DNA from: a virus | Virus record (IMG/VR): IMGVR_UViG_3300042750_000005 | Location: 1 to 39,252 of that record | DNA: 39,252 bases | Direction: 5' to 3' (one strand) | Shown: in pieces, positions 5,028-39,252 of the stretch | Layout of the letters: every line of letters begins with the position of its first letter | Numbering within the stretch: position 1 is the first letter of the stretch | The notes under the pieces: generated by a model | What the model was told of the DNA's origin: nothing | Databases searched by the model: none | What the model saw: the letters and a program-made list of their open reading frames with translations, nothing else | Program-made: the position numbers and the translations under genes

Positions 5028-5442
5028 CATTATGCAGACTGCGGACGGCGCGCTTGACATTGCCGGGAAAGACCTGAAAAGCGGCGGTTTTGTCGTCGCG
5101 AGTTGCGAATATACCGCCTCCACTGTGGACAAGGTGTTTTCAACCATGAATCGCCGGATGATTGTGAAAGCGATTACCGGCTTTGTGACTGTTGCGGGAA
5201 CTGGTGGCGCGGCTACGGCTACGATCCGCAAGGTTCCCAGCGGCACCGCTCTGGCGTCTGGAACGGCGCTGCACAGTGGATCGTTCAACTTTGTCGGCAC
5301 GGCGGTTACAGTGCAGGATTTGACGCTTAGCACCACGCTTTCGGACCTGATTCTTGAAGATGGCGACTCTCTTGCGATTGACTGCACCGGAACGCTGACA
5401 TCTGCGACCGGGGTTATCTCCGTTCACATGGCCCCCGCATAA
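5020..5442 (+). CDS. Hypothetical virion-module protein (decoration or accessory candidate)
   Basis: GGAGG lies 9 nt before ATG 5020 (MANIMQTADG...). 140 aa, beta-rich and Thr/Ala/Gly-rich. Confidence 0.5.
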   Translation: MANIMQTADGALDIAGKDLKSGGFVVASCEYTASTVDKVFSTMNRRMIVKAITGFVTVAGTGGAATATIRKVPSGTALASGTALHSGSFNFVGTAVTVQDLTLSTTLSDLILEDGDSLAIDCTGTLTSATGVISVHMAPA

Positions 5443-5741
5443 TGGAGACGCTTCATGTCGGCGTAACCGGCACTAGCGTCACCACTGGCGCGGCCAGCAA
5501 AACGGCCATCCCTGTTGCCGCCAACGGCGTCTCGGCCCGCAGGGTGGCGATTATGGCAGTGGGCGCTGCGGCTGTATATGCGTATGTGCGCCCTACCCAG
5601 AACGCGAACGGGGCCACGACCGACATACCCGTTTATACCGGCGCGCCACCGCTGATTCTGAACGTGCAGGGCTTTACGCATATCGGGCATATTGAGGGAA
5701 CCACGGCGGCGGTAATCAAAATCATTCCACTGGAGGACTGA
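5442..5741 (+). CDS. Hypothetical virion-module protein
   Basis: 99 aa. TAATG overlap upstream and TGATG overlap downstream. Confidence 0.5.
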   Translation: METLHVGVTGTSVTTGAASKTAIPVAANGVSARRVAIMAVGAAAVYAYVRPTQNANGATTDIPVYTGAPPLILNVQGFTHIGHIEGTTAAVIKIIPLED

Positions 5742-6061
5742 TGCGACTTCCGCTTGGTGTTTCGTATGGGGATATTGAAGAACATGTCCATATGGATGCC
5801 GATGGCAATCCAGAGGGCATCGAGTACACCCAGGATGTGCAGAGCGTTGTGGACTGGTGCCATGAAGCTACTGACGAGACGCATGGGCGGGAAATGCGCC
5901 ACGTTGGCCGCTATCCTATCGGCGAATTGCTGGTCTATGGCCGGATAAACGGGATTAACGATCCGTGCTGGTATCTGAAAAAAGAATACAGCGACCTGCT
6001 TGGGAAGCTGGTGAACGATAGCGGCCATGACCGGCTGCGGGTGTGGAAAGGGCGTGTATAA
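5741..6061 (+). CDS. Hypothetical virion-module protein
   Basis: 106 aa and translationally coupled. Confidence 0.5.
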   Translation: MRLPLGVSYGDIEEHVHMDADGNPEGIEYTQDVQSVVDWCHEATDETHGREMRHVGRYPIGELLVYGRINGINDPCWYLKKEYSDLLGKLVNDSGHDRLRVWKGRV

Positions 6062-24992: not shown

Positions 24993-25694
24993 ATGGCAAG
25001 GATCGAAACGCTGGCTGATGGGGTAACTCTCCTGCTTGGCGACTGCATGGATATTTTGCCCGGATTGCCAAAGCATGACGCGCTGGTGACTGACCCGCCT
25101 TATGGGATTAATTACCAATCATCTCTAACCGGGTTAGGGGCGCAAAAATTTGACAAGATAATTGGCGACATTGCAGAAATTGACCTATCCCTTATTCTAA
25201 ATCTCCAAATTCCAATTTTGGTATTTGGAGCTAATAACTTTCCGGCGCAGCTTCCCCAGCGGGGCCGGTGGTTATGCTGGGATAAGCGCACGATTGACGG
25301 CGCTTCGGATGCAATGCTGGGATCACCCTTTGAGTTGGCGTGGTCTAACAAAAAAAGTGGGTATGATAAGATTGTTCGCATTTTACACGGCGGCGTCGTC
25401 AATGCGGATGGCAAAGGCTTGCGCGTTCACCCTACACAGAAGCCTGTTGGCTTGATGAAGGCATGCATAGAATGGGTGGCAAATGACGCCAAAACCATCA
25501 TGGACCCGTTCATGGGCAGCGGCACAACCGGCGTTGCAGCCGTACAGATGGGGCGCAAGTTCACCGGCATTGAGATTTCAGAGCGTTACTTTGACATCTC
25601 CTGTAAAAGAGTTGAACAGGCTCTAGCCCAGCCAGATATGTTTATAAATGCCCCCGTTAGCGCACCGGCGCAGGGGTTTTTGGAGGATTTATGA
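24993..25694 (+). CDS. Orphan DNA methyltransferase, beta-class N6-adenine / N4-cytosine type
   Basis: Motif IV (VTDPPYG) comes before motif I (DPFMGSGTTGVAAVQMGRKFTGIE). GGAG lies 8 nt before ATG 24993. No restriction partner is present in the genome. Confidence 0.85.
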   Translation: MARIETLADGVTLLLGDCMDILPGLPKHDALVTDPPYGINYQSSLTGLGAQKFDKIIGDIAEIDLSLILNLQIPILVFGANNFPAQLPQRGRWLCWDKRTIDGASDAMLGSPFELAWSNKKSGYDKIVRILHGGVVNADGKGLRVHPTQKPVGLMKACIEWVANDAKTIMDPFMGSGTTGVAAVQMGRKFTGIEISERYFDISCKRVEQALAQPDMFINAPVSAPAQGFLEDL

Positions 25695-25891
25695 CCAAGA
25701 AGCCGAAGCTACTGCCCTGCGTTTGCGGCGGGACGCCCCACAACCATAAATATCCGGGCGTTACACAAAAGTGGGTGGGATGCGCATCATGCGTTATCGA
25801 GGTTATAGCGTTAACGCCTGGCCATGCGGCGATCATGTGGAACGCATCAATGAAAGCGCTCACGGAGGCGAAAAATGCCGACGTTGATTAA
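25691..25891 (+). CDS. Lar-like restriction alleviation family protein
   Basis: LLPCVCGGTP...WVGCASCVIEV...GHAAIMWNA fits the Lar pattern (PC-x-CGG ... C-x-x-C ... A-x-x-x-WN). ATGA overlap with the methylase gene. Confidence 0.5.
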   Translation: MTKKPKLLPCVCGGTPHNHKYPGVTQKWVGCASCVIEVIALTPGHAAIMWNASMKALTEAKNADVD

Positions 25892-26069
25892 GCCGAAGCA
25901 GGCAGAAGTCGATTTCTGGGAGATTGTTGAACATGAAAAACAGGCAATCCGTGTCCGGGTGTCTGGCAGCTTTTCCATATCCGACCCGAAAAAGCTGGGC
26001 GAATATATCGACAGGCTAAAAAGAGCGCATGCGTATCTAAAATCACAAGGCAAGGGGAAACAAAAATGA
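25875..26069 (+). CDS. Hypothetical protein
   Basis: GGAGG ribosome-binding site. 64 aa. Confidence 0.45.
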   Translation: MPTLIKPKQAEVDFWEIVEHEKQAIRVRVSGSFSISDPKKLGEYIDRLKRAHAYLKSQGKGKQK

Positions 26070-26176
26070 CTTTCCGTGCATCGGGTGCATCAACAGGTAG
26101 GCGGGCCAAACCGCAAAGGTTTTGTCTCGAATGTATGCAAGCGGCATTGCCGGAAACAATTGGAGAGGGACGATGA
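26066..26176 (+). pseudogene. Ghost 5' fragment of a DUF1064-family gene, left of the homing endonuclease
   Basis: MTFRASGASTGRRAKPQRFCLEC... compared with MKSFRASGASTGRKAKAQRFCLRC... at 26706. 19 of 23 aligned residues are identical, but 12 of those use different synonymous codons. The frame then diverges and stops at 26174-26176. Confidence 0.6.
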
Positions 26177-26709
26177 TTACTATTGAATTAACAGAATATC
26201 GTCTAAAAGAATTACTGCACTATGACCAAGATACGGGCATATTTACGCGATTAATTCAAATGTCTAGTAACGCAAAAGCTGGCGACAGAGCCGGGTCGTT
26301 TCATGTCGATGGTTATTTATGTATTAGCATAGACGGGAAAAAGTATAGGTCTCACAGGCTGGCGTGGTTTTACATGACCGGCGATTGGCCAACATCGGAT
26401 ATTGATCACATCAATGGCGTCAGAAGTGATAACCGGTTCGTTAATTTACGGCAGGCCACAAAGCCCCAAAACAATCAAAATTGCGCATTTTATAAAAATA
26501 ACAAATCTGGTTTTAGAGGTGTTTACTATTCCCCCGGCGGCAGAAAGAAAAAATGGCACGCCTGTATAAGGATCTCAGGGCGCACTAAGTTTATTGGTTA
26601 TTTCGCAAGCCGCGAAGACGCCCACGCCGCATATTTAGCGGCTAAAGCGAAATATCACCCATTTCAGCCTGTGCCGAGAGAGGTTTTGATCATGGAGGCA
26701 ACATTATGA
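26173..26709 (+). mobile_element. Free-standing HNH homing endonuclease gene (HNH_3 plus AP2 DNA-binding domain)
   Basis: YRSHRLAWFYMTGDWPTSDIDHINGVRSDNRFVNLRQATKPQNNQN is the HNH part and SGFRGVYY...KKKWHACIRISGRTKFIGYFASREDAHAAYLAAKAKY is the AP2 part. GGAGAGGGA ribosome-binding site. The gene is visibly more AT-rich than its flanks. Confidence 0.85.
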
Positions 26710-27188
26710 AATCATTCCGCGCATCCGGCGCATCTACAGGGCGCAAAGCAAAGGCGCAACGCTTCTGTCTGCGCTGCGAAGAACCTGTTTTGGGCATAGG
26801 CAAAAACTGCGACATATGCGGGAAGCCAGCGGAAAAATTCGACAGCAAGGCGGAATACAATCACTTCCACAAGCTGAAATTGCGCGAAAGGGCCGGTGAG
26901 ATATTCGGCCTGCGCTGCCATCCCAAATTCGAATTGAACGTGCGCCCCAATGATTATAACGGGCATGAGGGGGTGCACGTTTGTTACTACAGCCCTGATT
27001 TCAGCTATTCGGTCAAGGACGCCTATCACCCAGGGGGCGTTGCCGTGCACGAAGACGTGAAACCTGGAAAGCTGGTGAAGTCCGGCAAGATGAAGGGGCA
27101 GAAGAAGCCCGTAATGACCGCCGACGCTGCGCTAAAGATCAAGCTGTTCCAAGCCCTTTATGGGGTGAAGGTAAACATCATTTGTTGA
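26706..27188 (+). CDS. DUF1064-family endonuclease (putative Holliday-junction resolvase type) with an N-terminal Cys4 extension
   Basis: FDSKAEYNHFHKLKLRERAGEIFGLRCHPKFEL...YSPDFSY...VHEDVKPG...KIKLFQALYG fits the DUF1064 pattern. CLRC...CDIC lies at the N-terminus. Confidence 0.6.
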   Translation: MKSFRASGASTGRKAKAQRFCLRCEEPVLGIGKNCDICGKPAEKFDSKAEYNHFHKLKLRERAGEIFGLRCHPKFELNVRPNDYNGHEGVHVCYYSPDFSYSVKDAYHPGGVAVHEDVKPGKLVKSGKMKGQKKPVMTADAALKIKLFQALYGVKVNIIC

Positions 27189-27520
27189 ACACGAAGCGAT
27201 ACAGGGTAACATCAAGCAATATAACCGTAAACGGCTCGCGCGTCACGTCCAAAAGCCCTGCATGGCTGGGGCTGGATATGAGCAAGGCCGAACCGCGACA
27301 GCAAAGCACGATGATGCTGTTTGCTGTTGGCGCACACGCCCCGATTGATGTTCATCTGAGCGTTCCGTTTCAGCACGCTGGCGACACGGTAGATTCGGGA
27401 TGTTTCTACCGTGTCCGGCCAAAAATGGAAATTGGCGAGAAATGGCAGGGGAAAACTGTGGGATCGGTTGCGTTTGAGCGCTGGGATGGTGAGTGGTTTA
27501 TCGCGGTTAGATTTTGTTGA
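27182..27520 (+). CDS. Hypothetical protein (start uncertain)
   Basis: The ORF is open from a TTG at 27182, and an internal ATG at 27278 is also possible. The C-terminal GKTVGSVAFERWDGEWFIAVRF looks protein-like. No clear ribosome-binding site. Confidence 0.35.
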   Translation: MLNTKRYRVTSSNITVNGSRVTSKSPAWLGLDMSKAEPRQQSTMMLFAVGAHAPIDVHLSVPFQHAGDTVDSGCFYRVRPKMEIGEKWQGKTVGSVAFERWDGEWFIAVRFC

Positions 27521-38953: not shown

Positions 38954-39252
38954 ATGGGCGATATTACATACGGCACACGCCCCGGCGCGGTGGCGCTGTT
39001 AACGACCGAGCTTAACAGTCTGGCCACTGCGACGTTTACGGCGTTCGGGCCGGTAATCACTCCGGGCAGCACCACCAACCTGACTATTCGGGCCTTGCGC
39101 GGGGACCTGCTTTTCAAGCTGGCCAGCAGTTCGCTGGCGCTGACCACCAGTTCCTTTGTGTCGGTGTATTTTGTCCCGGCTTTTGACGCCACAAACTACC
39201 CCAAACTGTCAGGCAATAACCTTGCCGAGGTGAACTATTTTGTCGGCAACAT
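38954..39252 (+). CDS. 5' part of the wrap-around CDS (continues as 128..296 after removing the 127-bp overlap)
   Basis: The ATG directly follows the previous TAA. The ORF is open to the window end and in frame with 33..296 through the repeat. Confidence 0.7.
   Translation, partial: MGDITYGTRPGAVALLTTELNSLATATFTAFGPVITPGSTTNLTIRALRGDLLFKLASSSLALTTSSFVSVYFVPAFDATNYPKLSGNNLAEVNYFVGN
39126..39252. repeat. Terminal direct repeat, copy 2 (identical to 1..127)
   Basis: Direct comparison of the two window ends. Confidence 0.95.

Follow-up and report, generated by a model that had tools for sequence, protein, structure and literature searches.

The locus described here raises a question: how has an endonuclease gene come to lie between two copies of the start of its downstream neighbour while that neighbour remains whole? 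It belongs to the virus record IMGVR_UViG_3300042750_000005, positions 1 to 39,252 of which make up the stretch of DNA analysed, referred to below as the window. The gene at 26173-26709 (+ strand, as are all features given here) encodes a free-standing HNH_3 endonuclease of 178 amino acids (aa). Downstream of it, at 26706-27188 (+), is a complete gene for a DUF1064 / PD-(D/E)XK nuclease of 160 aa with an N-terminal four-Cys zinc-ribbon-like extension. Upstream, at 26066-26176 (+), is a 36-codon open reading frame (ORF) that repeats the beginning of the DUF1064 protein and that we call the ghost. Comparison with related contigs suggests that the region is probably the footprint left when a single endonuclease-associated gene conversion took place in a phage that carried a type-B DUF1064 gene directly behind a 64-aa gene.

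Two alleles of one gene on either side of the endonuclease

The ghost ORF translates as MTFRASGASTGRRAKPQRFCLECMQAALPETIGEGR followed by a stop codon, and the downstream ORF begins MKSFRASGASTGRKAKAQRFCLRC. A first-pass annotation of the window had reported this duplicated peptide, and its counts hold: with a one-codon offset the two copies agree at 19 of 23 positions, and exactly 12 of the identical residues are specified by different codons. When the ghost was searched with tblastn against the six-frame translation of the window, the downstream copy was found at E=3e-10 and the next best match at E=1.1. The copies lie in direct orientation, 640 nucleotides (nt) apart. In DNA they are identical at 51 of 89 nt; blastn at word size 7 gave no hit between them, and a repeat finder returned nothing. 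The ghost had been missed by gene callers on the identical contigs L007 and L008.

The relation between the copies becomes clear from the DUF1064 family. We collected 20 full-length homologues from metagenomes, all of which (20/20) carry the N-terminal motif FRASGASTGR..AK...C.L.C and a second Cys pair that together give this region its zinc-ribbon-like look. The stretch between the Cys pairs (window 26766-26830, residues 21-42) is hypervariable across the family and falls into two main classes, reading CLRCEEPVxGxGKNCDICGKPAE in type A and CLECMQAALPDEKKCACGGKIE in type B. DNA identity between type A and type B is 47-49% over 26738-26826 and 59-67% over 26827-26875. The complete DUF1064 gene of the window has a type-A 5’ end. 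The ghost agrees with type B as far as codon 30 (MTFRASGASTGRRAKPQR[F/L]CLECMQAALP), and its peptide matches homologues P0003 and P0007 through ...CMQAALP, that is, to the same codon. The ghost proper, 26066-26154 (+), therefore corresponds to codons 1-30 of a type-B allele, that of the proposed recipient, and is identical to L013 at 85 of 89 nt and to L002 at 84 of 89 nt; the remaining six codons (TIGEGR) are junction codons. The view that the copies are alleles of two lineages is borne out, the ghost agreeing with type B at 84-85/89 nt and the retained 5’ end with type A at 88/89 nt. The statement that the upstream copy loses similarity right after its second Cys does not stand: similarity to the B allele continues to codon 30, and it seemed to stop earlier because the ghost had been compared with type-A sequence.

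Relatives of the locus were obtained by exact-protein look-ups, and all are short metagenomic contigs. Scans of viral, genome and JGI metagenome contigs for patterns drawn from the DUF1064 alignment gave no confirmed relative, and a DNA search of the region against 50,697 phage records gave no match. In all 13 related contexts the DUF1064 gene is coupled by an (A/G)TGA overlap directly to its upstream gene and this endonuclease is absent, which agrees with the earlier proposal that the endonuclease gene is an insertion. In three of the 13 the upstream gene is a homologue of the 64-aa gene at 25875-26069 (L002 306-539, L005 81-275, L013 30-224), so that the predicted empty site, a gene of this kind ATGA-coupled to an intact DUF1064 gene, does exist; the ten further contexts are also endonuclease-free. 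The short upstream ORF was not seen as an independent gene in any of the relatives found. L002 and L013 have an uninterrupted type-B DUF1064 gene in the empty-site position. Window 25517-26154 aligns with L002 1-624 at 82% identity and window 26838-27207 with L002 662-1031 at 91%; the corresponding segments for L013 are 25850-26154 with 5-309 at 94% and 26832-27064 with 341-573 at 90%. In both, homology to the window is lost at exactly 26154.

Set against these empty sites, about 76 nt of the B allele (L002 625-700, codons 31-56) has been swapped for about 720 nt of foreign DNA: the window keeps to the B backbone as far as 26154 and returns to it at about 26876. A base-by-base comparison with L002, L013, L001 and L003 places the left junction at 26148-26154 (+), a 7-nt microhomology, TGC[C/A]GGA, between the B allele and the tail of a foreign methyltransferase gene. 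At this position begins a foreign 40-nt block, 26148-26187 (+), that matches L003 128-167 at 35 of 40 nt (E=7e-8) and L001 5929-5968 at 34 of 40 (E=6e-7), with a weaker match in L012. The block holds the last 13 codons of the methyltransferase gene (...CRKQLERDDDYY, stop codon 26184-26186), overlapping the ATG and the first five codons (MITIE) of the small Cys-rich gene that comes next in other phages. The L001 gene that ends here (5329-5967, 212 aa, phrog_799 DNA methyltransferase) terminates in ...CRKQLERDHDYD; elsewhere in the window there is no other trace of this gene. The small Cys-rich gene starts MITIEK in L003 (153-344) and MTTIEK in L001.

The same block supplies the start of the endonuclease gene. 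Homology to the endonuclease family begins at about 26185, the N-terminus reading MLTQSRLKELL in the family and MITIE-LTEYRLKELL in the window, and the nearest homologue starts ATGACTGAATTAAC. The first 15 nt of the gene match the small-gene start of L003 at 14 of 15 positions. A wholly native start was rejected on the basis of that match and of the different beginning of the nearest homologue. As judged from these alignments, the small gene has contributed its ribosome-binding site, ATG and first 4-5 codons, to which the endonuclease gene is joined in frame at the GAA codon, 26185-26187.

On the right side the foreign DNA continues into the DUF1064 gene as a tract of about 170 nt, 26706-26875 (+), that comprises codons 1-56 of a type-A allele and is read as a co-converted donor tract. 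Identities per segment separate the classes: 26738-26826 matches type-A L005 at 88 of 89 nt (B alleles 42-44/89), and 26827-26875 matches type-A L006 at 46 of 49 (B alleles 29-33/49), whereas 26876-26960 matches the B backbone of L002 at 83 of 85 (A alleles 59-69/85). The type-A signature ends at about 26875, which puts the right homologous crossover approximately at 26867-26880 (+).

Origin of the footprint and competing explanations

We consider that the footprint probably originated by homing in which only one side offered homology and the other was repaired illegitimately. The donor would have carried, in this order, a gene for a DNA methyltransferase, the HNH gene and a type-A DUF1064 gene that is ATGA-coupled to the gene before it; the HNH gene would itself have occupied the slot of the small Cys-rich gene and used the beginning of that gene as its own. 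A break within codons 31-56 of the recipient DUF1064 gene would have been repaired on its right side by homologous invasion of the donor DUF1064 gene, with a crossover near 26876, and leftward copying would then have taken in the 5’ end of the type-A allele, the HNH gene and finally 25 nt from the tail of the methyltransferase gene. The left end would then have been sealed illegitimately at the 7-nt microhomology because donor and recipient, which differ in the gene before DUF1064, had no usable homology upstream. By this route the part of DUF1064 between the break and the far end of the gene would become duplicated, and the product would be a mosaic DUF1064 gene, still intact, whose front is A-type and whose rear belongs to the B backbone. 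It would be preceded by the endonuclease gene and, ahead of that, a 30-codon B-type ghost. The replaced recipient segment is only about 76 nt long and thus fits a single break widened to a small gap, not two unrelated recombinations.

Three ATGA stop-start overlaps chain the four ORFs of the region. The ghost starts within the stop of the 64-aa gene and ends, as had been noticed at first pass, in the ATGA at the endonuclease ATG (26173); the endonuclease stop overlaps the DUF1064 ATG at 26706. The neatness of this chain is what would be expected because only products that restored a complete nuclease gene and the translational coupling of the operon would have been viable. With the chain unbroken, all four ORFs can, as far as the sequence tells, still be translated as one operon, and translation of the ghost may serve to couple ribosomes into the HNH gene.

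The break itself was presumably made by this HNH protein, whose predicted target would lie in codons 31-56 of the B allele, which cover the latter half of the zinc-ribbon-like region and the sequence immediately beyond it; type-A sequence would be expected to resist cutting. The first-pass annotation had proposed an illegitimate invasion with partial co-conversion, and both the type-A tract and the microhomology junction support it. Its suggestion that the start of the DUF1064 gene is the cleavage target is not supported, as the ghost keeps B codons 1-30 beside an intact endonuclease gene and the codons replaced are 31-56. Nor does synonymous recoding appear to protect the retained copy: both allele classes are also present in endonuclease-free phages, they are divergent over the replaced segment in amino acids as well as in DNA (by 50% or more), and the silent differences within codons 1-23 are those of alleles that parted long ago under purifying selection.

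Several points weigh against this account of the event. Homologues of the endonuclease led to no donor with the order methyltransferase-HNH-DUF1064(A) and to no further occupied site, only to identical contigs, and the donor arrangement is rebuilt from just the 40-nt block and the co-conversion tract. More than one step may have been involved. Cutting of the B allele by this HNH protein is a prediction from sequence, and many HNH homing enzymes only nick DNA. A free-standing endonuclease can also cleave at a site that lies hundreds of bases away from its own gene (PMC2988022). The phages are heavily mosaic, and in L005 the allele class switches at codon 11-12 with no endonuclease present, so endonuclease-independent recombination in DUF1064 clearly occurs. 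The parallel case in L013, described below, is a single 2-kilobase (kb) contig, and the other relatives are likewise short.

This mosaicism is the basis of the leading alternative, in which the methyltransferase tail of a second genome became attached to a B allele at codon 30, DUF1064 underwent a separate homologous exchange, and the HNH gene was only a passenger. The partners would have been two co-infecting phages, or a phage and a prophage, and the joining would have been illegitimate and independent of any endonuclease. The DUF1064 alleles are indeed a patchwork with breakpoints that lack an endonuclease (P0003 and P0007 are mosaics, in addition to L005), gene order around DUF1064 varies widely among the relatives, and L001 has an unrelated deletion scar between its methyltransferase gene and DUF1064. 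However, the two junctions in the window lie about 76 nt apart in recipient coordinates and bracket exactly the endonuclease and a piece of a neighbouring gene, and in L013 the architecture recurs at the opposite end of DUF1064, where the HNH gene is an unrelated one and 43 nt are replaced. Chance would rarely place an endonuclease gene at both, and we regard an origin by mosaicism of this ordinary kind as unlikely.

A different proposal is that the ghost is a maintained functional element, either a translated leader that hands ribosomes on from the 64-aa gene to the endonuclease gene and so governs expression of the latter, or an active half zinc-ribbon peptide. Its ORF is open, its ribosome-binding context is still the original one, an ATGA overlap is retained at each end, and it has diverged from the B alleles (94-96% identity) no more than the adjacent backbone gene has. 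No promoter-like or terminator-like site was found near the endonuclease gene, whose expression must therefore depend on upstream transcription and translation. But a single lineage carries the ghost, its copies are 100% identical to one another, and the absence of decay could simply reflect a recent event; the peptide has the first Cys pair only; and the ATGA at its end stems from the pre-existing overlap of the methyltransferase and small genes, read in another frame. Such a role would in any case add to an origin as a scar and not replace it, and as an explanation of the ghost we hold it to be quite improbable. Hardly any weight is left for a tandem duplication of the DUF1064 5’ end in situ with later insertion of the endonuclease gene, or for an assembly chimera of two strains, even though the copies are in direct orientation and the window is a metagenome assembly. 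Duplication in situ conflicts with the finding that each copy is near-identical to a different allele class that is single-copy elsewhere (84-85/89 and 88/89 nt), and that a 25-nt piece of a gene absent from the window sits between the copies. A chimera conflicts with the recovery of the identical arrangement from at least three independently assembled datasets (a megahit contig from ENA, one from JGI and the contigs about 39 kb long). Both are effectively refuted.

A mirror case and comparable systems

L013 has a 150-aa HNH gene (phrog_826) just 3’ of DUF1064 that is unrelated to the endonuclease gene of the window, the two proteins showing weak similarity around the HNH motif only. Positions 574-1141 of L013 stand for just 43 nt of window-type backbone (27065-27107) and contain a foreign C-terminal allele segment (...ILTPESALKIKLFQALFGVKVNFIC, stop) and the HNH gene. 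Directly after the HNH stop, in an ATGA overlap, comes MTADAALKIKLFQALYGVKVNIIC and a stop codon, a 24-codon ghost of the backbone C-terminus that is nearly identical in DNA to window 27115-27188; the whole tract occupies 574-1223, corresponding to window 27065-27188. The far junction is at a microhomology, CCC[A/G]T[C/A]ATGA. Judging from the two sequences, two unrelated endonuclease genes have left the same kind of footprint at opposite ends of one gene.

Events of this kind are already known, and we do not describe a new kind of system; what sets this one apart is that the whole footprint can be read and that an independent mirror case exists. Intronless homing in T-even phages, by the seg and mob genes of T4 (SegB, SegG, MobE), leads to co-inheritance of flanking donor tracts and to mosaic neighbour genes (PMC2988022). 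As in those systems, a stand-alone endonuclease gene lies between genes, is present or absent among collinear relatives and is accompanied by a co-conversion tract. Here, in contrast, the predicted enzyme is of the HNH_3 type, with a tail that may be AP2-like, and not of the GIY-YIG or T4 Mob type, the phage belongs to an unrelated group (SU10-type portal, 39 kb), and homology was one-sided, so that the target gene was partly duplicated. One-sided homing in T4 proceeds by illegitimate repair of the double-strand break at microhomologies (PMC2988022). The locus shares its junction pattern with one-sided homing of the T4 td intron, in which homology serves to repair one end of the break and the other, once partly degraded, is sealed at a microhomology; the pattern is seen at 26148-26154 and about 26876 and again in L013. 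The td work of Parker, Belisle and Belfort in 1999 is said to have used an engineered laboratory system and an intron-encoded enzyme. The event in the window, unlike that in td, was natural, involved a free-standing gene and left the target gene intact.

Fungal mitochondria offer a second comparison. The atp6 gene of Allomyces reportedly has a partial gene-end duplication beside an endonuclease ORF. Partial duplications of gene ends beside endonuclease ORFs are described for atp6 and cob of Endoconidiophora resinifera (PMC6279837). In the fungal cases, as here, the endonuclease ORF brings a replacement gene end and the displaced original end survives beyond the ORF; they differ in being organellar, in involving GIY-YIG or LAGLIDADG enzymes and in affecting mostly 3’ ends, whereas the present locus is in a phage, has an HNH enzyme and affects the 5’ end, with the 3’ end affected in L013. 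In ICP1 and other phages, HNH-type genes, including HNH genes with AP2, are found exactly where similarity switches (PMC10448857). The shared feature is a nuclease gene at the boundary of an exchange between phages. The boundaries in that work are at the scale of genes or islands and have no ghost copies, and the terms ‘remnant’ and ‘illegitimate’ are absent from the paper.

The window thus provides a fully resolved natural case of entry by a free-standing endonuclease gene with one-sided homology, with both alleles, the junctions and the borrowed start identified, by a route known from T4 laboratory work and fungal mitochondrial scars and rarely documented in phage genomes. It narrows the putative target of an uncharacterised HNH enzyme to about 76 nt, and it is a caution for annotation that short unannotated ORFs beside endonuclease genes may be displaced gene ends. 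More tentatively, one might suppose that in this phage group such endonuclease genes travel as cassettes together with a resistant replacement end of the essential gene that they target, and can land at either end of it, by one-sided homology, without inactivating it; we find this conceivable and somewhat doubtful. Were it true, repeated events would drive the extreme patchwork of DUF1064 alleles in the zinc-ribbon-like region and the C-terminus, the ghost ORFs left behind would be retained as leaders that couple translation into the endonuclease gene, and a ghost could recombine with the real copy as a clean way out, giving a product of the structure that the L005 hybrid allele has.

In that allele (L005 272-400) the first 32 nt are those of the ghost (31/32, window 26066-26097) and are followed by the type-A tract (88/89, window 26738-26826). 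Precisely such a structure would result from recombination between the two direct copies with loss of the endonuclease gene, and it could equally have arisen by an ordinary crossover in the FRASGASTG stretch.

The endonuclease and DUF1064 proteins and their surroundings

The endonuclease matches HNH_3 (PF13392) over residues 59-101 (E=4.1e-14, 52.4 bits, cut-off 24.8) and phrog_99 over residues 6-164 (E=1.4e-66). Its reading frame is uninterrupted, and residues D78, H79, N81, G82, D86, N87, R88, N91, L92, N100, Q102 and N103 are invariant in 12 aligned sequences, the window protein included. The GC (guanine plus cytosine) content of the gene core is 43.8%, against 54.7% for the window. Of the earlier description as an AT-rich HNH-AP2 gene, the low GC content and an HNH domain, here HNH_3, are upheld, but Pfam detects no AP2 in this protein, even at E<=5. 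Homologues 54-62% identical to it, aligned over their full length, do carry precomputed PF00847 (AP2) hits. A search of solved structures with the endonuclease gave no hit.

Exact copies of the endonuclease protein occur only on contigs that are themselves 100% identical to the window and that derive from several independent samples. The nearest non-identical homologue (62% identity) is found in other phages upstream of a DnaB-like gene: in L009 (895-1434), L010 and L011 it lies between a 178-aa gene and the DnaB-like helicase gene, with 8-nt overlaps, and some of these contigs come from the same series of ENA samples. The family appears to occupy different sites near replication genes, as is typical of mobile free-standing endonucleases.

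The DUF1064 protein matches PF06356 at 36.8 bits (cut-off 24.7) and phrog_190, annotated as ‘Holliday junction resolvase’, at E=1.9e-16; resolvase activity is in this case an annotation. DUF1064 has been placed in the PD-(D/E)XK nuclease superfamily (PMC1189080). D98, K119 and P120 are nearly invariant across 21 DUF1064 sequences, and A6, S7, G8, S10, T11, G12, A15, K16, C21, L22 and C24 are invariant in all 22 alignment rows, the ghost included. Proteins of known phages have only the DUF1064 core in common with it (residues 45-159, 33-36% identity) and are without the N-terminal extension. Solved structures gave only insignificant hits to the zinc-ribbon-like region (eL37, eL40 and RPB12, E=0.08-0.5). 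Homologues P0015, P0016 and P0020 have a 9-residue insertion between the Cys pairs, and the flanking FRASGASTGR and FDS are nearly invariant.

The window ends in a 127-nt identical direct repeat (1-127 and 39126-39252), an assembly overlap that indicates a circular or circularly permuted complete genome with a unique length of about 39.1 kb. It encodes an SU10-type portal and a terminase and is therefore a complete tailed-phage genome. An Rfam scan of 25500-27500 at E<=1 gave no family match other than a chance lncRNA hit, and no intron-like RNA. The endonuclease gene has no host intron or intein. The downstream DUF1064 gene is complete and has its own start, on which ground a split-gene or intron arrangement was rejected.

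The 64-aa backbone gene at 25875-26069 (+) has no family hit. Its DNA is 94-96% identical to that of L005 and L013 and, over a longer stretch, 82% identical to that of L002. In the window it is separate from the preceding gene (25691-25891), which it overlaps by 17 nt. L003 has two tandem paralogues of the small Cys-rich gene (153-714, motif LxPCxCGG ... MWNAAMKA), the second of which is fused in frame to a gene of the 64-aa type to give a 126-aa product. Between the methyltransferase gene and DUF1064 of L001 there is a 29-codon ORF (5955-6040, MTTIEKLLPCVCGGIPCGTSATSRKGGKK, stop), which resembles a scar left by a deletion, with the first part of the small Cys-rich gene now running into the last part of a gene of the 64-aa type.

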